Sequence record: PP261279.1 | Origin: Escherichia phage ECP2303 | Strand: one strand, 5' to 3' | Length of the DNA: 64,000 nt | In this document: positions 17,661 to 26,415 of the stretch, piece after piece | How the letters are laid out: each line of letters opens with the position of its first letter | How positions within the stretch are numbered: the stretch's first letter is position 1 | Made by a program: the position numbers and the translations under genes | Notes under the pieces: model-generated | Databases searched by the model: none | The model's input: only the letters and a program-made list of their open reading frames with translations | What the model was told of the DNA's origin: nothing

Positions 17661-19208
17661 TTAGATAAAACGCTTGAACATAGAAGGTGATGAGATTGAT
17701 GGAATCACACAAGGCAGCGCTACCTCCTCTTTCTCTAGGAAATTAATCGCAGAAGCTACACAGTCGGCCCAGTCGTCTTTTCTGTTAAATGTTGATCTTT
17801 CCCCGTTGAACTTTTCAAGTTCAGTCAGAAATGCTTCCAGAGTGTCAGGATGGAAACTGGATTTTACAATCCTCACCATTCCTTGTTGGGCAAGATTGGC
17901 AAAAGGTGAGAACCTTGTCAGTTTAGATTTGTTGGAAGGCATTGGATCTTCTTCAACCCTGAACCCTTCGGCGAGCAAGGATCTGGATGAGGTTAAGAAC
18001 TCACTCTTACCTGCCTGGCCGGGGTCCACAGAAAATACGATTATGCAATCATCTCCATCAAACTGTGCCTGTTTCCTGATGATCACATCTCGTTCCCCAG
18101 CCTTTTTACAGAACTTGCCTTCCAGACCTGTGGAATACCTACCGTCATCCACGTTCTCAGGACAATAATCTCCGGACAGGTAATAAAAGCCGTCGCTATC
18201 TTTACTTACCTTAACACTGGCGGTAAAGTCAGGAAATTTATTACCGGAAGTTCTCTCGGTCCCTGCCTTATCCCATGCCCTGCAAGATACTGATCCAAGA
18301 GGTACTCTATCGGCATCCCGAAGGAAAGATCTTTGGAAATAGTTTGCACCCTCAGGTTTGGCAAACCAGTTGCCATGAAGAAGCTGGGCTTTTTCAAGCT
18401 CTGGCAGACCTTCAAGGAAAGCAAGGTATTCTGGGTTGTCTCTCAAGCAGACAGGATTATCGAAAATTGTTGCGCCTATAAACGAGAATGACAACGGTCT
18501 TGGCTTGATCTCCACACCCAGTCCGTTAACCGTGGTGTATTTCTCTATTAACTCTTCTTTAGAGTCTCCCCAAATAAATTCACCGTCGCGTCGGATAAAA
18601 TATCTTTTCTTACCACATTTCTCCGGATCTGGATACCCTTCATCGTCCAACCACCACCTAACCAGTTTGGCAAGCATGTGTTCTGAGTCGGGGTTACAGC
18701 TGATAACCATTCTTGATGGATACTTTGACTGAGATCGCAGACGAGACATCAAATAGTCTATCTGCTCCCATTCGAATTGCGTGCCTTCATCGAAGCAAAC
18801 CATGGTGTACTCAAGGCCTTGATGGTTAAGCTTATCTTGGACATACTCCATGTGGCAGTATTTTACAACGGCCCCCTTTTTGCTCCTATCCCACTTGCCA
18901 GTGCTCGGATCAAACCGTGGAAAAATAAACTTATGATCCTTCTCTCTGAACTTTGGTTTAATGTTTTCAGGCAGATCACTGTAAATAGCTACTGCTTTAG
19001 GCCATAGCCCACCCTCACCTTCCAACTGGGGAGTTGTTCTTCGGAACATAACCACAGAGCTGTGCGGGTCATCAATAATTTTAAGCGGCATTAGCTGCAA
19101 GAGGAACGACTTGCCAGACCCAGCTGCACCTCCGATCACCAAAATATCTGCATCGTTCTCTAGGATCATCTTCTGCTTTTCAGAACACGGTCCGTAAATC
19201 TTAGACAT
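17661..19208 (-). CDS. terminase large subunit
   Basis: 515 aa with an N-terminal Walker A (VIGGAAGSGKS) and a C-terminal nuclease-like region. Confidence 0.85.
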   Translation of the reverse strand: MSKIYGPCSEKQKMILENDADILVIGGAAGSGKSFLLQLMPLKIIDDPHSSVVMFRRTTPQLEGEGGLWPKAVAIYSDLPENIKPKFREKDHKFIFPRFDPSTGKWDRSKKGAVVKYCHMEYVQDKLNHQGLEYTMVCFDEGTQFEWEQIDYLMSRLRSQSKYPSRMVISCNPDSEHMLAKLVRWWLDDEGYPDPEKCGKKRYFIRRDGEFIWGDSKEELIEKYTTVNGLGVEIKPRPLSFSFIGATIFDNPVCLRDNPEYLAFLEGLPELEKAQLLHGNWFAKPEGANYFQRSFLRDADRVPLGSVSCRAWDKAGTERTSGNKFPDFTASVKVSKDSDGFYYLSGDYCPENVDDGRYSTGLEGKFCKKAGERDVIIRKQAQFDGDDCIIVFSVDPGQAGKSEFLTSSRSLLAEGFRVEEDPMPSNKSKLTRFSPFANLAQQGMVRIVKSSFHPDTLEAFLTELEKFNGERSTFNRKDDWADCVASAINFLEKEEVALPCVIPSISSPSMFKRFI

Positions 19209-20556: not shown

Positions 20557-20655
20557 GGTGCTAGGTGATGGAATCGAACCACCTATGTATTCAACGACTA
20601 CCTCGTCTATTTTCAGGATTAAAAATCCTCGCCCTTGCCAAAGGGCTTACCTAGC
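20557..20655 (-). tRNA. tRNA-like element, atypical (~99 nt; anticodon unassigned)
   Basis: Canonical acceptor stem (GCTAGGT/ACCTAGC), D arm and T arm (GGTGG-TTCGATT-CCATC), but two internal hairpins both have 5-nt loops, so there is no 7-nt anticodon loop. Confidence 0.4.
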
Positions 20656-21220: not shown

Positions 21221-21559
21221 TTAACTATTGCCAACAGGCTGTATTTCTGTGGTAAATGGCATAAAAGGTGCTGGTTTTTCAGCCTCTTCTACTACCACCT
21301 CTTCCTCTTCACCAAACATCTCATCATATTCTTCCTGCATTCGGTCTGCCTTATCAAGAACATACTCTGCAATGCTTTGACGAATATTTTGTTTGGTTTT
21401 CGGGTCCAACATCAGCTCTCTTAAAACTTTGTGAGCTTCTGGAACCATCGCTATAAAAGATTCCTTCATATCAAGGATGTTCTTCTCTAGCTGAATGGCG
21501 TTGGACTCCTCTTTCAGAGGTCTGCCTCTACGGCGACGCTTTTTAGTTGTATCCGCCAT
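21221..21559 (-). CDS. small basic protein, putative DNA-binding
   Basis: 112 aa from an internal ATG with GGAGGAAAC Shine-Dalgarno; N-terminal KKRRRRGRP patch; a TATCACGTGATA palindrome lies 12 nt upstream of the start. Confidence 0.5.
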   Translation of the reverse strand: MADTTKKRRRRGRPLKEESNAIQLEKNILDMKESFIAMVPEAHKVLRELMLDPKTKQNIRQSIAEYVLDKADRMQEEYDEMFGEEEEVVVEEAEKPAPFMPFTTEIQPVGNS

Positions 21560-21904: not shown

Positions 21905-22147
21905 TCATTGTAAAGCACAAATAAATAAAACATACTTAATTTGTTTGTTATCGGGCTCAGGGTAGAAGTAGAAGATCTTGCTATCACCAATCTGCACACC
22001 ACCATCCCAACAACATAAACCATAACCCGTATTCATACAAGCTAAGTCGTTTGCAAAATCTATTGCATCATCTAGTGCACGAAATTCACCTTCATCTTCT
22101 AAATAATCCTCATTCATGGAACGGAAAACGAGCTTAACCTTAAACAT
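21905..22147 (-). CDS. hypothetical protein
   Basis: 80-aa acidic ORF. Confidence 0.4.
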   Translation of the reverse strand: MFKVKLVFRSMNEDYLEDEGEFRALDDAIDFANDLACMNTGYGLCCWDGGVQIGDSKIFYFYPEPDNKQIKYVLFICALQ

Positions 22148-22223
22148 AGCATTACCTGTAGACCTCGTAAGTTAAAATTGTATCACATCATATTGCAGAT
22201 CTTATCAGGTAACATTATTTTTG

Positions 22224-22412
22224 TCAACAGATTCCGGCCTTATCCCTCCTGTCTGCGTATTCTTTAATCGCAACCTCACCTGCATTGGTAACCAGATCTT
22301 CAAAGTAATTCTCAAGCTCCTCGTCAATGTCCGGTGACCAGCTCTTTTTCCTGTCAGTGTGAATTGCAGACTTGTTGAACTTATTACAATTCTTTGCTAC
22401 CGGATTGTTCAT
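22224..22412 (-). CDS. hypothetical protein
   Basis: 62-aa ORF co-oriented with neighbours. Confidence 0.3.
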   Translation of the reverse strand: MNNPVAKNCNKFNKSAIHTDRKKSWSPDIDEELENYFEDLVTNAGEVAIKEYADRRDKAGIC

Positions 22413-22422
22413 TAAGCTCTCC

Positions 22423-23001
22423 TCAACGTTCGTAGTAAATCTTATTCAACATTACCTCATCGTTTGCAGAAAGGATATCAAGATATGCATCACCAAATCT
22501 GCCTGCAACAACCTCTGCATGATACATCACTTCGTTAACATCGTCAAGAGTGATAACCGGATGACCATATCTTTCTGAATATTGTCTCAGTGTGCGATGT
22601 AACGAGTCGTCATCATATGCAGACTTTTTAATATCACAAACACGACGAATGGCCTTGATGTCGAAAAAACCTGTGCGATACCACCCAAGAAAAAAGTTCC
22701 GTGTAGTGTCAACATCTACATCAATACCATTAAGAACCTTATCTACAAGATAGCTGTCATCCTTTGGACTAGCGTCCTTAGTGCGAATGTAGTTGCCATC
22801 TTTTCCAGGTGATAGCTCCTTCTCATCACCAACTTGCATGCCATCATTTGGCGGTGTTAGCCACTTATCAGGATGCTTACGATCACGAGCGTTAGAATGA
22901 TTACGCTGGAAACCTGGCTTCCACTTGAAAGTTTTCTCCATCTGTTCTTCATTCTGATAACGTTTTGCAATCTTTTCACTGGCATCTTTGCGTGAACTCA
23001 T
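22423..23001 (-). CDS. hypothetical protein
   Basis: 192-aa ORF. Confidence 0.45.
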   Translation of the reverse strand: MSSRKDASEKIAKRYQNEEQMEKTFKWKPGFQRNHSNARDRKHPDKWLTPPNDGMQVGDEKELSPGKDGNYIRTKDASPKDDSYLVDKVLNGIDVDVDTTRNFFLGWYRTGFFDIKAIRRVCDIKKSAYDDDSLHRTLRQYSERYGHPVITLDDVNEVMYHAEVVAGRFGDAYLDILSANDEVMLNKIYYER

Positions 23002-23385
23002 AGCAGACTCCTCTTCAAGTTATAGAAAAACTCACTGTATCGCTTTGTAACGAGCTTTTCTATCAAACTGGTGCGATTGCCTTACTTGGTATAGTTTATA
23101 TAGCTGTGGAGCGATTTAGGGGCCTTCTTGTCAGTTTCCACACATAAACTTTATCCGAACTCGCGCGGGAGGCTCTCAACCGACTCCTTCCGGCGCTGGC
23201 AAGCTTTCGTCGGTGGTACACATTAGTGCTCGGCCTTTGGCCTGCGCTATCGCTTCGCTCCCACACATGTTAACAGTCCTGCATGTATGCACTTCTGTTA
23301 TTGTGTGCACTATGGAGGCCCGGCATCTCGCCCCTCGTAGGCGAGTGCCAATGAAGGGCCGACACTACCCATAATAAGTAATAAA

Positions 23386-23505
23386 TTTAAAACATGGTAC
23401 TTAGGATCTAGTATATTCTACATAAGTTAAGTATATGTACTTTAGTACCATAAGTACTAGATCTTTTATTTTTATTATTTAGTTATTTTAGTTATATTCT
23501 TTATG
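23386..23505. repeat. AT-rich region with dyad-symmetry elements (putative DNA-unwinding element)
   Basis: Inverted elements GATCTAGTA / TACTAGATC and CATGGTAC / GTACCAT, then a ~45-bp run of TTTTATT-type sequence. Confidence 0.5.
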
Positions 23506-23587
23506 TGTCCGTATCACGGACAGTTAGTGTCCGTATTACGGGCAGATGTGTCCGCGTGACGGACAGTAGTGTCCGTATCACGGACAG
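23506..23587. repeat. four tandem ~21-bp iterons, each an 18-bp palindrome TGTCCGTATCACGGACAG (two exact, two variant)
   Basis: Copies at 23506, 23528, 23549 and 23570 with 21-22 bp periodicity; each has arms TGTCCGT / ACGGACA around a 4-nt centre. Confidence 0.8.
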
Positions 23588-23661
23588 TTACTAACCTCTG
23601 TTCCAGAGTGAACATAAAACATACAAATCCTTATAGTACAGATGTTTAAGTTTTTACTGGT

Positions 23662-24012
23662 CTAACCAGTTGTTGACATTCGAATAACTTCTTCTGGTGG
23701 CAAAACTTTGTAAAATGTGCATCTTTTACCTCTCCCTTGTGTGGATATTTCAACCACTCCTGCACATTCTAAAGTTTTAACGCACGCTGCTGCTTTTGTT
23801 TTCTTTATCCCAACATCTGCTGCAATTTTCCTTGTGCTGGGTGTGAAGCGTGAATTTTCTCCAAGCTTATACCAGTTGTGCAGATAGCAGTATACGATCT
23901 TGTCATATAAGTCAAGAACAACAACCTCCCCAGTTGTGTCATTCAAAACTTTTGACATAGACAGTATTTCAAGGGGGACTTTAAGATATAGCAGCTTATC
24001 CCCATCTTTCAT
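23662..24012 (-). CDS. winged-helix DNA-binding protein (putative iteron-binding regulator or initiator)
   Basis: 116 aa with an HTH-like segment STRKIAADVGIKKTKAAACVKTLECAGVVE; its 3' end sits ~75 bp from the iteron array. Confidence 0.45.
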   Translation of the reverse strand: MKDGDKLLYLKVPLEILSMSKVLNDTTGEVVVLDLYDKIVYCYLHNWYKLGENSRFTPSTRKIAADVGIKKTKAAACVKTLECAGVVEISTQGRGKRCTFYKVLPPEEVIRMSTTG

Positions 24013-24059
24013 ATCTCCTGATTCTCCTTGTGTGGCAATTTTCTTTAAAATAGCAGGGA

Positions 24060-24614
24060 TTACTCCCCGCTGTCAATAGCAAGACTCATTGCAATACGGT
24101 ATGCCTCTTCTAATGGTAAGAGTCTCCCCCACACATCCCAACCGACATCAAACTGCCTGCCAAACAACTGCTGTGTGGTTCCGTGAGCATGACCGAACAG
24201 TTGGACTGATCCGTGAGGCTTTCTGTTCCACTTTGCAAACTGGTAATGGCTCATACAGATCAAATTCTTGTTGTGGCGAAGCTCGTAATAATCTACAACC
24301 TCATGACCGAACTCTTTCATAATTCTGACAGTCGTTCTTGTGTCATGGTTACCACGAACAAGAATAATATGTCCGTTCAACATATTTAGAACATCTGGAA
24401 GCAGTTTGTTGATATTCTTATCATTAGTGCACGCAATATCCCCCAAGTGAAACACAGTGTCTGCAGGTGACACAACAGAGTTCCACTTGGTGATGATTCC
24501 CGCATTCATACTGTCAAGATTGTGATCATACTGAGATCTGTGTTTTTGACATGAGTCGAACTCCATTACCCGCTGGTGGAGAAAGTGTGTGTCGCTTGTT
24601 ACAAAGTATTTCAT
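24060..24614 (-). CDS. calcineurin-like metallophosphoesterase
   Basis: Track ORF trimmed to the Met with a GAGGA Shine-Dalgarno; motifs SDTHF, GDIA, GNHD, GHAHG of the metallophosphatase superfamily. Confidence 0.7.
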   Translation of the reverse strand: MKYFVTSDTHFLHQRVMEFDSCQKHRSQYDHNLDSMNAGIITKWNSVVSPADTVFHLGDIACTNDKNINKLLPDVLNMLNGHIILVRGNHDTRTTVRIMKEFGHEVVDYYELRHNKNLICMSHYQFAKWNRKPHGSVQLFGHAHGTTQQLFGRQFDVGWDVWGRLLPLEEAYRIAMSLAIDSGE

Positions 24615-24621
24615 ACATTCC

Positions 24622-25032
24622 TCATTTAAGTTTAATGCAGTTTTTAAGCTGGCGTTCCATACGATCCACAACCCTGTCTGGAACATCATGAATGCTTTTA
24701 TTACCATGGCGGTTTTCAACCACGATCACGGTATAACTATATCCATGACTGATCGCCATGTCAATATATTCTTGCACATATTTTTCTTTTGTAAACGTAT
24801 TACTTACCACGATACGGTCGTAGCCCATACGCATCATATCTTCTACGTTATCTTTGCACCATTTTGCTGCAAGTGTTACTTTACTTGCATCCCAATTGTA
24901 ATTGCCGTCATCGTCGTACCAGAACATATCGTTCTCAAAATGTGGATACAGACCTTCTAAAGATAGCGCATTTGCCAGTGTTGATTTGCCAGACCCTGGT
25001 AGACCACGCACGATATATAGCATTTTAGACAT
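24622..25032 (-). CDS. P-loop polynucleotide-kinase-like protein
   Basis: 136 aa from the Met with a GGAGAG Shine-Dalgarno; Walker A GLPGSGKST and overall resemblance to the T4 Pnkp kinase domain (recalled from memory, not aligned). Confidence 0.6.
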   Translation of the reverse strand: MSKMLYIVRGLPGSGKSTLANALSLEGLYPHFENDMFWYDDDGNYNWDASKVTLAAKWCKDNVEDMMRMGYDRIVVSNTFTKEKYVQEYIDMAISHGYSYTVIVVENRHGNKSIHDVPDRVVDRMERQLKNCIKLK

Positions 25033-25060
25033 AGTAACTCTCCGTTTTAATTTTAATGAT

Positions 25061-25089
25061 AGTATACCTAACTGTTTTGTTAATTTCAA
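25061..25089 (-). promoter_or_regulatory. sigma70-like promoter for the kinase/phosphoesterase operon
   Basis: Minus strand TTGAAA-N17-TATACT about 25 nt upstream of the kinase start; divergent from the ligase promoter. Confidence 0.5.
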
Positions 25090-25092
25090 GTG

Positions 25093-25121
25093 TTGACACC
25101 AGGTTATTTGTGTGGCAGAAT
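25093..25121 (+). promoter_or_regulatory. sigma70-like promoter upstream of the RNA ligase gene
   Basis: TTGACA-N17-CAGAAT (weak -10) 30 nt upstream of the ligase start region. Confidence 0.4.
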
Positions 25122-25150
25122 AAAGGGACAAAATGACAAATGAGGAATGT

Positions 25151-26068
25151 ATGATGAAGTATTTTAATGCAGACGACCTGGTTGACAAAGGTCTTGTAAC
25201 CAGCAGATATTACCCAGATCTTGGATTAAAGATCTACAAATATGCCAGAAAAGTATTCTACAACAATTTATGGCATTTGTCTCCGCGTTTACTAGAGTGC
25301 CGAGGCATTGTTGTCGGTAATGAAGGAAATGTTGTGGCATGGCCCTTCACAAAAGTGTTTAATTTGGGAGAAAACTCCACCAACCTGCCTGACAATAAAC
25401 TTGTGACGGCGGTAGAGAAAAAGAACGGATTCCTTGGTGTGGTATCATCTCATAAAGGTGAACTATTGTTTTCAACAACCGGGTCTCTTGATTCTCCATA
25501 TTGTAACCTTGCAAAGGAAACCATCCAGGAGCAATGTGGTAATTTAGATCTCATCAAAAAGGTTATGGGCCATGAAAACATGACATTCATGTTTGAAATT
25601 TGTCACCCTTCAGATCCGCATATTGTTCAGGAAGACCATGGCGCATATTTGATAGGTTGCAGATATAACGATTCTGGAATAATGCTACCAGAAGCAGCTT
25701 TAGATGGGATTGCCAAATACCTTGGTGCAAAACGTCCTCACACTGTGCGTGAAATTCCGTTCAGCTATGCAAAAGAATTAGCTGCAGAAACAAGAGGTGA
25801 AGGGTATATGATTCGTAAGCCTTACTACCCTTATGATCTGCAGCTGAAGATCAAGTCTCCATACTATTTGGCACGGAAGGCCGTAATGAGGGGTAAAGCT
25901 TGGAAGATTTGGGATGATGATATCTTTAAACGTATTGACGAAGAGTTTTACGGCATGGTAAACTTCATTCGTAACAATTACACAGAAGATGTGTGGAACT
26001 GCCTCCTAGAGCAGGAACGCCGTGAGATACTTGACTGCTATTTCCACAACGAGGACTATATGCAATGA
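25151..26068 (+). CDS. RNA ligase, T4 Rnl1 (gp63)-like
   Basis: Blocks LECRGIVV, FNLGEN, EKKNGFL (KxxG nucleotidyltransferase lysine motif), FSTTGSL, FMFEICHP match T4 Rnl1 as recalled from memory; start taken at the ATG after GAGGAA (track start 25133 also possible). Confidence 0.75.
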   Translation: MMKYFNADDLVDKGLVTSRYYPDLGLKIYKYARKVFYNNLWHLSPRLLECRGIVVGNEGNVVAWPFTKVFNLGENSTNLPDNKLVTAVEKKNGFLGVVSSHKGELLFSTTGSLDSPYCNLAKETIQEQCGNLDLIKKVMGHENMTFMFEICHPSDPHIVQEDHGAYLIGCRYNDSGIMLPEAALDGIAKYLGAKRPHTVREIPFSYAKELAAETRGEGYMIRKPYYPYDLQLKIKSPYYLARKAVMRGKAWKIWDDDIFKRIDEEFYGMVNFIRNNYTEDVWNCLLEQERREILDCYFHNEDYMQ

Positions 26069-26415
26069 AGAAGTTGATTGTGTGGCTGGATGACTTGAGA
26101 GATCCGTCAAATTATGGGCTCCCAGATGCTCTTTGGCTAAAGAATTCCTCTGAGTTTATGGATTTTATTAACGATAAGGGAAAGCTCTACAGGCGCGTTT
26201 CTGAGTGGCACATGGACAACGACCTTGGAGAGGTATTTGAAGGGTACGATTGCCTATCTATGCTGGAGGAAAAATTTGTATTTGGTAAGCCTCCTGTAGT
26301 TGACAACGTGAAGATTTTCGTGCATACTTCTAACCCATCAGCTGCTCGTAAATTCATGCTTGCTGCTGACTCGTTTAAAAAGTTTGGAATAGAGATTAAA
26401 CAAAACATCTACTGA
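26065..26415 (+). CDS. hypothetical protein co-transcribed with the RNA ligase
   Basis: 116 aa, start overlaps the ligase stop (ATGA). Confidence 0.5.
   Translation: MKKLIVWLDDLRDPSNYGLPDALWLKNSSEFMDFINDKGKLYRRVSEWHMDNDLGEVFEGYDCLSMLEEKFVFGKPPVVDNVKIFVHTSNPSAARKFMLAADSFKKFGIEIKQNIY

Follow-up and report, generated by a model that had tools for sequence, protein, structure and literature searches.

The replication origin of phage lambda lies in the middle of gene O and consists of four iterons, which are imperfect inverted repeats, and an AT-rich tract, and two of these iterons in combination with this AT-rich tract suffice for unwinding (PMC7466680). The Vibrio cholerae satellite PLE depends for its replication on RepA, a protein that binds semi-palindromic iterons and of which the N-terminal domain is known as structure 4RO3; RepA acts together with the PolA polymerase and gp4-like replisome of phage ICP1 and with an SF1B helicase (PMC7145576). 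For phage rV5, a PolA-type polymerase, a primase-helicase, and a PIF1/RecD helicase are encoded in the genome, and the genome paper used GC skew in search of an origin and found only switches of transcription orientation (PMC3606486). Here we analyze a locus in a 64,000-nucleotide stretch of Escherichia phage ECP2303 (PP261279.1; this whole stretch is referred to as the window), which combines four phased palindromic repeats, an adjoining AT-rich block, and a nearby gene for a small winged-helix protein. In our view, this locus is probably a replication origin of rV5-type phages, belonging to the iteron type.

The origin of rV5-like phages (Vequintavirus) has never been mapped, and the locus offers a precise candidate of 230 base pairs (bp) with a named protein partner. 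These phages are widely isolated, and they are used in the biocontrol of E. coli O157 and in therapy cocktails. Over 22400-25200, the window matches Escherichia phage ECP2309 (PP464953.1) at 100% identity and about 116 further Vequintavirus genomes at 96-99%. For genome-wide counts, we joined the window to the rest of record PP464953.1, resulting in a genome of 136,863 bp in which the window makes up the final 64 kb and window position p corresponds to genome position p + 72,863. A preliminary description, which was made from the letters alone, had proposed an iteron-type origin or a multi-site operator at this locus, and our analysis supports this proposal, with the evidence favoring the origin.

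Repeat array and adjoining AT-rich block

The repeat block spans 23505-23590, is non-coding, and consists of four units of 21-22 bp, each of which contains a 17-bp palindrome of the form TGTCCG-N5-CGGACA. The start-to-start spacing of the four copies is 22, 21, and 21 bp. Copy 1 (23506-23522) and copy 4 (23570-23586) are identical (TGTCCGTATCACGGACA), copy 2 (23528-23544; TGTCCGTATTACGGGCA) is changed at one base of the centre and one base of an arm, and copy 3 (23549-23565; TGTCCGCGTGACGGACA) is changed in the centre only. With the centres TATCA, TATTA, and CGTGA, these are semi-palindromic direct repeats without a central poly-A tract. The two exact and two variant palindromes at 21-22 bp distance that had been described are thus present as claimed, and only their length of 18 bp has to be corrected, as the 18th base, a G, is outside the palindrome. 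The 17 bp can be read in a 7-3-7 or a 6-5-6 geometry; the lambda iterons, TCCCTC-N5-GAGGGA, have the 6-5-6 geometry.

Whereas 1.18 sites with up to two mismatches are expected in 64 kb, four are observed, all of them in one phased 81-bp block. No further site with 0 or 1 mismatch exists anywhere in the 136,863-bp genome, none with up to three mismatches is found within 22000-26000, and no weak site lies near the promoters of the region. The predicted fold of the repeat block is far more stable than that of shuffled sequences (z = -6.7). When the repeat sequence was looked up in the literature library used here, no report of these repeats turned up, and two GenBank records flag the array merely as tandem repeats. 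Among 5,426 complete E. coli genomes, none contains a match to the repeat block, and the single match in PLSDB is to a plasmid entry that is in fact an rV5-like genome. As a side aspect, the circular record of 137,565 bp that was submitted as E. coli plasmid pRHB39-C03_2 from cattle faeces (CP057073.1; L043) is an rV5-like phage genome and carries the full origin-like locus, which points to a carrier state or to phage DNA in the culture that was sequenced.

The repeats are directly preceded by a T-rich run of 44 bp (23461-23504; 14% GC), in good agreement with the AT-rich stretch of about 45 bp noted before, and the 50-bp segment 23450-23499 likewise has 14% GC. On the basis of its GC content and duplex stability, we propose that this T-run is a DNA unwinding element. 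When nearest-neighbour sums were computed genome-wide in sliding windows of 40, 50, 80, and 130 bp, the least stable of about 136,800 windows fell at all four sizes into the block next to the array, with the minima at 23465, 23455, 23419, and 23371, respectively. At the edge of the T-run, which includes most of it, lies at 23460-23472 (GATCTTTTATTTT) the sole match of the genome to the 13-mer GATCTnTTnTTTT (consensus GATCTNTTNTTTT) of the E. coli oriC unwinding element; this match was recognized post hoc and is located in a T-rich stretch. Next to the T-run lies an AT-rich dyad region (23376-23460, 22-28% GC) with two inverted 9-mers that contain GATC, GATCTAGTA at 23405-23413 and TACTAGATC at 23455-23463. 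This region might prolong the unwinding element or be the binding site of an accessory factor. The nested inverted repeats that had been described at 23376-23480 do exist, but they do not fold better than shuffled sequences (z = -1.27), and we therefore rejected a cruciform at this position.

To describe conservation, alignments were made of 7 and 12 relatives, and variable columns were counted among 7 genomes. Only 1 of 48 columns is variable in the repeat arms and 1 of 44 in the T-run, and these two elements are constrained about as strongly as codon positions 1 and 2. The repeat centres vary in 4 of 20 columns and the dyad region in 8 of 85. Variability is much higher in the sequence 23591-23615 between the repeats and the gene (16/25 columns), at the third codon positions of the winged-helix gene (36/117), and in a GC-rich block at 23100-23375 (62/276, which is about the synonymous rate). 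Those substitutions that do occur within repeats either affect the N5 centre or bring an arm back to the consensus, as does the exchange of TGCCCG to TGTCCG in JEP1. A search of related genomes, which had been suggested as a check, recovered the repeat block in all 118 Vequintavirus records that carry the winged-helix gene.

The number of repeats is four in most deposited genomes, three in C7 (L044), in which the first unit is missing, three in BP9 (L045), in which the last unit is missing, and two in YN3 (L046). These changes always comprise whole units of 21-22 bp, and the phase is kept. Two metagenome contigs from Logan (L012 and L017) end in or at the array, L012 with a repeat that appears collapsed, and MG065672.1 starts exactly at the array edge (positions 1-137); such contig ends are likely assembly breaks at short tandem repeats.

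Winged-helix protein, related loci, and genomic setting

The gene next to the array (23662-24012, minus strand) is homologous to rV5 gp075/ORF79 and encodes a protein of 116 amino acids (aa), which, judged by its sequence, is the putative origin-binding protein. As had been claimed, it is a small helix-turn-helix protein, and the AlphaFold2 model (predicted local distance difference test, pLDDT, 81.6) has a winged helix plus an N-terminal helix and a beta-hairpin extension. The gene had also been placed beside the repeats, which holds with a distance of 76 bp; as the gene is on the minus strand, the non-coding repeats are 3' of its stop codon and not upstream of it.

By sequence and fold, the closest relative of the protein is the N-terminal domain of Vibrio PLE RepA (4RO3; Pfam DUF6945). 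Foldseek also aligned nearly its full length with structures of the staphylococcal RepA_N initiators, over 107-114 columns with 4pql, 5kbj, and 4pta and over 90 columns with 4pt7 (E 4.5e-4 to 2e-2), a likeness that may not go beyond a generic winged helix. In PHROGs, the protein belongs to phrog_12838, 'replication initiation protein', and its other matches are weak and confined to the N-terminal ~100 positions of much longer initiator or O-like families. A homologue from phage KpS8 matches positions 9-113 of phrog_8102, which has 337 positions, with an E value of 7e-36. The family is narrow: an exhaustive HMMER search gave 14 matches among 1.84 billion representative proteins, a word-indexed protein search returned near-identical clusters only, and a peptide-pattern scan of IMG/VR found no relatives.

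We scanned for the exact pattern of two adjacent TGTCCG-N5-CGGACA units and obtained eight IMG/VR loci and 11 loci from bacteria or metagenome-assembled genomes (MAGs). The eight viral loci, which are on unrelated contigs, and one Treponema MAG (L023-L030, L034) have two to seven copies with a period of 20-25 bp and one 46-bp gap; six of these nine arrays comprise at least five copies. In each of the nine, the array is inside an open reading frame (ORF) of 251-387 aa that encodes an N-terminal winged helix, a linker formed by the repeats, and a C-terminal domain, and a relatively AT-rich stretch comes next. These ORFs represent seven protein types, five of which match PHROG replication-initiation or O-like families, and the protein of L034 matches HTH_36 (E 1.4e-9). 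The proteins are almost unrecognizable as relatives of one another, and the rV5-type protein aligns with them only in the core winged helix (hhalign 83%, E 8e-6, 60 columns). One high-GC contig has the centres CGTGG and TATTG, compared to CGTGA and TATTA in the rV5-type array. Because the nine loci have the layout of lambda, they show, by analogy, that this class of repeats is in all likelihood used as an origin element. The remaining bacterial matches have two to four copies in mixed contexts.

More distant homologues of the protein are found beside other repeats. The DUF6945 protein P0017 (locus L042), with 27-30% identity to the winged-helix protein, is followed 12 bp past its stop codon by two semi-palindromic direct repeats that are 23 bp apart, and then by a region of 20% GC with a 22-nucleotide inverted repeat; the order of the parts is thus the same as in rV5, with a different repeat sequence. 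The phages KpS8 (Mydovirus) and GAP31 (Seunavirus) encode homologues of 105 aa with 28% identity (L004 2489-2764 and L005 2466-2743) exactly at their divergent transcription switch. Two direct repeats containing TCAAATTGA are located 11-15 bp upstream of the start codon of these homologues, AGCCTnnnCTCAAATTGATA in GAP31 and a diverged pair 23 bp apart in KpS8, and an AT-rich tract with repeated AGATCT sites is also just upstream. The locus of these phages is thus a second candidate for an origin or operator, in other genera of the Vequintavirinae. The AT-rich regions of rV5 cannot be credibly aligned with those of GAP31 and KpS8, and the phi92-like relative muut has no winged-helix homologue at the switch, where a phosphoribosyl pyrophosphate (PRPP) synthetase gene is found. 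It may be added that the longer distant homologues P0011, P0016, P0017, and P0018 terminate with a run of acidic residues and then PF or NF, a tail that the rV5-type protein does not have. The tip of the C-terminus of the single-stranded DNA-binding protein SSB, DDDIPF, resembles these tails, which would fit a recruitment of replication proteins by the distant homologues.

The array and the AT-rich block are within a 660-bp gap without a conserved ORF. Directly 5' of the winged-helix gene, there is a sigma-70-type promoter (24047-24076, minus strand; TTGACA-18-TATTTT with a TG extension), which is P76 as annotated in the rV5 record NC_011041, and on the other side of the gene, a spacer (23591-23661), the hypervariable part of which is 23591-23615, leads from the stop codon to the repeats. 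The sigma-70-like site closest to the array is at 23609-23637 on the plus strand (TGAACA-17-TATAGT), from where transcription would enter the winged-helix gene at its 3' end in the antisense direction; its -10 element becomes TATAAT in the most divergent relative, Aya. This site is reminiscent of the counter-transcripts that control repA of RepA_N plasmids. The late-promoter motif of rV5, TGGTAAAATA, has a weak match at 23441-23450, which we did not use as evidence. Rfam, at gathering and E-value thresholds, gave nothing credible in 22950-23700.

The GC-rich block 23100-23375, which separates the AT-rich region from the next gene and has no conserved ORF, is confined to this genus and has 48-64% GC, compared to 43% in the genome. 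It folds somewhat better than shuffled sequences (z = -2.4 and -3.1) and could be a structured leader, a non-coding RNA, or a decaying coding remnant. In rV5, it carries an 18-bp deletion. The next downstream gene (22423-23001, minus strand), of which the array is about 500 bp upstream, encodes a 192-aa protein of phrog_12226 (unknown function). We considered this protein as a detached C-terminal partner of the winged-helix protein and found no support: besides belonging to phrog_12226, it has no Pfam match, its AlphaFold2 model is poor (pLDDT 51), and a homologue with 50% identity occurs in an unrelated context in which there is neither a winged-helix gene nor the repeats.

The main divergence of transcription is at about 25033-25153, 1.45-1.6 kb from the array, which matches the earlier estimate of 1.5 kb. 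Three further features of the surroundings were noted. Between the tRNA cluster and the region studied here, a minus-strand ORF of 112 aa (21221-21559; phrog_3330, unknown function) has an N-terminal KKRRRRGRP motif and an acidic tail and might be a small DNA-binding protein, e.g., small-terminase-like. Within the cluster of seven tRNA genes, ARAGORN called a tRNA of 99 nucleotides with a four-base anticodon (atcc) at 20557-20655 (minus strand) and left its identity undetermined, and Rfam also scored it as tRNA (35.5 bits). On the plus strand, an ORF of 116 aa (26065-26415) that follows the RNA ligase gene belongs to phrog_1479 (unknown function), and its relatives carry a precomputed Pfam cREC_REC match.

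Probable origin function and competing explanations

We favor an origin because the least stable duplex of the genome adjoins the repeats, because the closest solved relative of the protein is the iteron-binding N-terminal domain of PLE RepA, and because the same core arrays lie inside genes of lambda-O-like initiators. The conservation of the arms and the AT-rich run, next to 25 hypervariable bp, and the position of the only GATCTnTTnTTTT match of the genome in the AT-rich block are further reasons. It is fairly likely that this is the known iteron origin of the lambda/RepA type in an unusual, separated form, with the DNA-binding domain on its own and the repeats in non-coding DNA.

Several observations weigh against this interpretation. 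The Pfam matches of the protein are at threshold level (DUF6945 28.5 bits with a cut-off of 28, HTH_36 24.8 bits with a cut-off of 25), and Pfam gave no match to RepA_N (PF06970) at E <= 1 and none to Phage_rep_O. The protein is a single domain of which the chain ends 13 residues past the wing, without a C-terminal domain; we know of no characterized iteron-binding initiator as small as these 116 aa, and a lone DNA-binding domain is also repressor-like. The repeats are outside the initiator gene, whereas they are inside in lambda O and RepA_N. Neither a DnaA box nor an IHF consensus is present in 23000-23700. As judged from the sequences, homology to the initiators with the same repeat core is weak, so that the shared core could be convergent, and for KpS8 and GAP31, where the repeats are directly upstream of the gene, autoregulation seems equally plausible as an origin. 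The cumulative GC skew, which had been suggested as a check, has its global minimum in the 1-kb bin 97,001-98,000 of the genome, 0.6-1.6 kb from the array and thus indeed close to it, but the skew is not independent evidence because its sign tracks gene orientation genome-wide. The genome position of the array is therefore compatible with an origin and is not counted as evidence. Finally, large virulent phages do not necessarily need an origin defined by a protein, as they can also initiate from R-loops or through recombination.

The array could alternatively serve transcription, either as an operator of a nearby promoter or as a roadblock in which four dimers stop read-through from P81, P80, and P76 into the downstream genes, i.e., the 192-aa gene, the tRNAs, and the lysis and structural genes. 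A small single-domain protein, for which the first annotation noted a similarity to the N-terminus of a GntR-family regulator, would suit such a function, as would the position of the array inside a transcription unit without a predicted terminator after the winged-helix gene, across which transcription from these three promoters probably reads; the repeats in KpS8 and GAP31, 11-15 bp in front of the start codon, point in the same direction. However, a scan of both strands for sigma-70-like promoters gave none that overlaps 23505-23590, although a phage-specific promoter is conceivable, and the promoter/terminator table of rV5 has no entry in the 660-bp gap. An autoregulatory operator is unlikely because the repeats are 3' of the winged-helix gene and overlap no predicted promoter; moreover, the next start codon is about 500 bp away, and the genome has only this single array of candidate binding sites. 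A roadblock would leave unexplained both the conserved least stable duplex beside the array and the presence of the same arrays inside O-like initiator genes. Altogether, we regard a role in transcription as rather unlikely. Still less can be said for a pac site at which phased repeats with GATC sites start headful packaging by the terminase. As rV5 has been reported to be circularly permuted, a pac site must exist, pac sites often are phased repeats, as in P1 and SPP1, and the contig and record ends at the array could be read as packaging ends. Against this, the large terminase gene (17661-19208) is 4.3 kb away, the protein beside the array matches no terminase-small-subunit family and has its best relatives among initiator DNA-binding domains, the contig ends are explained by repeat collapse (L012) and ordinary assembly breaks, and extreme duplex instability is no known requirement of pac sites. 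We thus consider a pac site highly improbable.

Some other nucleoprotein function is conceivable as well, such as copy control by handcuffing, a decoy or anti-satellite element, or the remnant of a decayed O-like initiator gene, the origin function of which was lost to R-loop- or recombination-dependent initiation. A remnant would account for the missing C-terminal domain, the position of the repeats outside any ORF, the nearly neutral evolution of the downstream GC-rich block, as would be expected of coding sequence in decay, and the existence of deposited genomes with two or three repeats. It is at odds with the finding that, in 118 genomes, the arms and the AT-rich run are under strong purifying selection, and the variants with two or three copies are compatible with an origin, as two iterons and the AT tract suffice in lambda (PMC7466680). 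We believe that explanations of this group are improbable.

Proposed mechanism and comparison with known initiation systems

If the locus is an origin, initiation could proceed as follows. The winged-helix protein is predicted to be made early from its own sigma-70 promoter and would bind as a dimer to each 17-bp TGTCCG-N5-CGGACA, the half-sites of which are 11 bp apart. As the spacing of 21-22 bp corresponds to two helical turns, four dimers would be positioned on one face of the DNA, which may become bent or wrapped as in the lambda O-some. The resulting strain could open the adjacent 44-bp T-rich run, the place in the genome that is computed to melt most easily. The T7-gp4-like primase-helicase of the phage would then load directly onto the opened DNA, possibly helped by the helicase of the PIF1/RecD type (SF1B). 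We infer direct loading because the winged-helix protein has no C-terminal domain that could recruit a helicase loader. There is a precedent in PLE, whose RepA fires an iteron origin with the T7-like replisome of ICP1 and an SF1B helicase. More speculatively, read-through transcription from the winged-helix operon across the repeats might help activation, as it does in lambda.

A wider view would join two ideas: that rV5-type phages have a minimal split initiator, consisting of a stand-alone protein resembling the RepA N-terminal domain and four non-coding repeats, with no dedicated loader, and that TGTCCG-N5-CGGACA at a distance of about 21 bp is an ancient recognition code between winged helix and DNA, retained across the diverged initiators of high-GC viral contigs, a Treponema element, and E. 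coli phages. We put this forward tentatively and consider it doubtful as a whole.

If the locus does function as an origin, it would be a handle for phage engineering and for origin-plasmid tools, and it would show that an initiator cut down to its DNA-binding domain can work in a virulent phage of 137 kb whose replisome is T7-like. The family of Vibrio PLE RepA (DUF6945) would be linked to mainstream coliphages, and the recurrence of the repeat core in very divergent lambda-O-like initiators would be suggested, which could be used for the prediction of origins in metagenomic phage contigs.

Among the known systems, the lambda origin shares with this locus four imperfect inverted repeats of 17-19 bp that are in phase along one helix face and, directly adjoining them, a tract of about 40 bp that is AT-rich and serves unwinding, as proposed for the T-run here. 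Lambda O also has an N-terminal winged-helix binding domain, and transcription runs through or near the origin (PMC7466680). There are differences as well. The lambda origin is inside gene O, whereas here the stop codon of the gene is 76 bp away from the repeats; the C-terminal domain with which O recruits P and DnaB has no counterpart in the rV5-type protein; and lambda uses the DnaB of the host, whereas an rV5-type phage encodes a T7-like replisome of its own. Unlike the rV5-type locus, the eight loci from IMG/VR and the one from Treponema keep the lambda layout. With E. coli oriC, the likeness is limited to one exact match to the 13-mer consensus beside the proposed initiator sites: the oriC unwinding element has three 13-mers, whereas here there is one copy and there are no DnaA boxes and no IHF site.

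The RepA_N initiators of staphylococcal plasmids (pSK41, pTZ2162) bind semi-palindromic direct repeats with a dimeric winged-helix N-terminal domain, as we propose for the rV5-type protein. They differ in having the iterons inside repA and a C-terminal domain that is specific for the host genus, and the protein analyzed here does not match Pfam RepA_N. PLE has semi-palindromic iterons in a non-coding region and depends on the type of replisome that rV5 encodes, and in these respects, it agrees with the locus described here. PLE RepA has a C-terminal domain and the rV5-type protein has none, and a PLE iteron consists of 13-bp inverted sub-repeats around a poly-A tract, in contrast to the arms of 6-7 bp without an A-tract found here (PMC7145576). 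Moreover, PLE is a satellite that steals the replisome of another phage, whereas in the present case a phage would be using an origin of its own.

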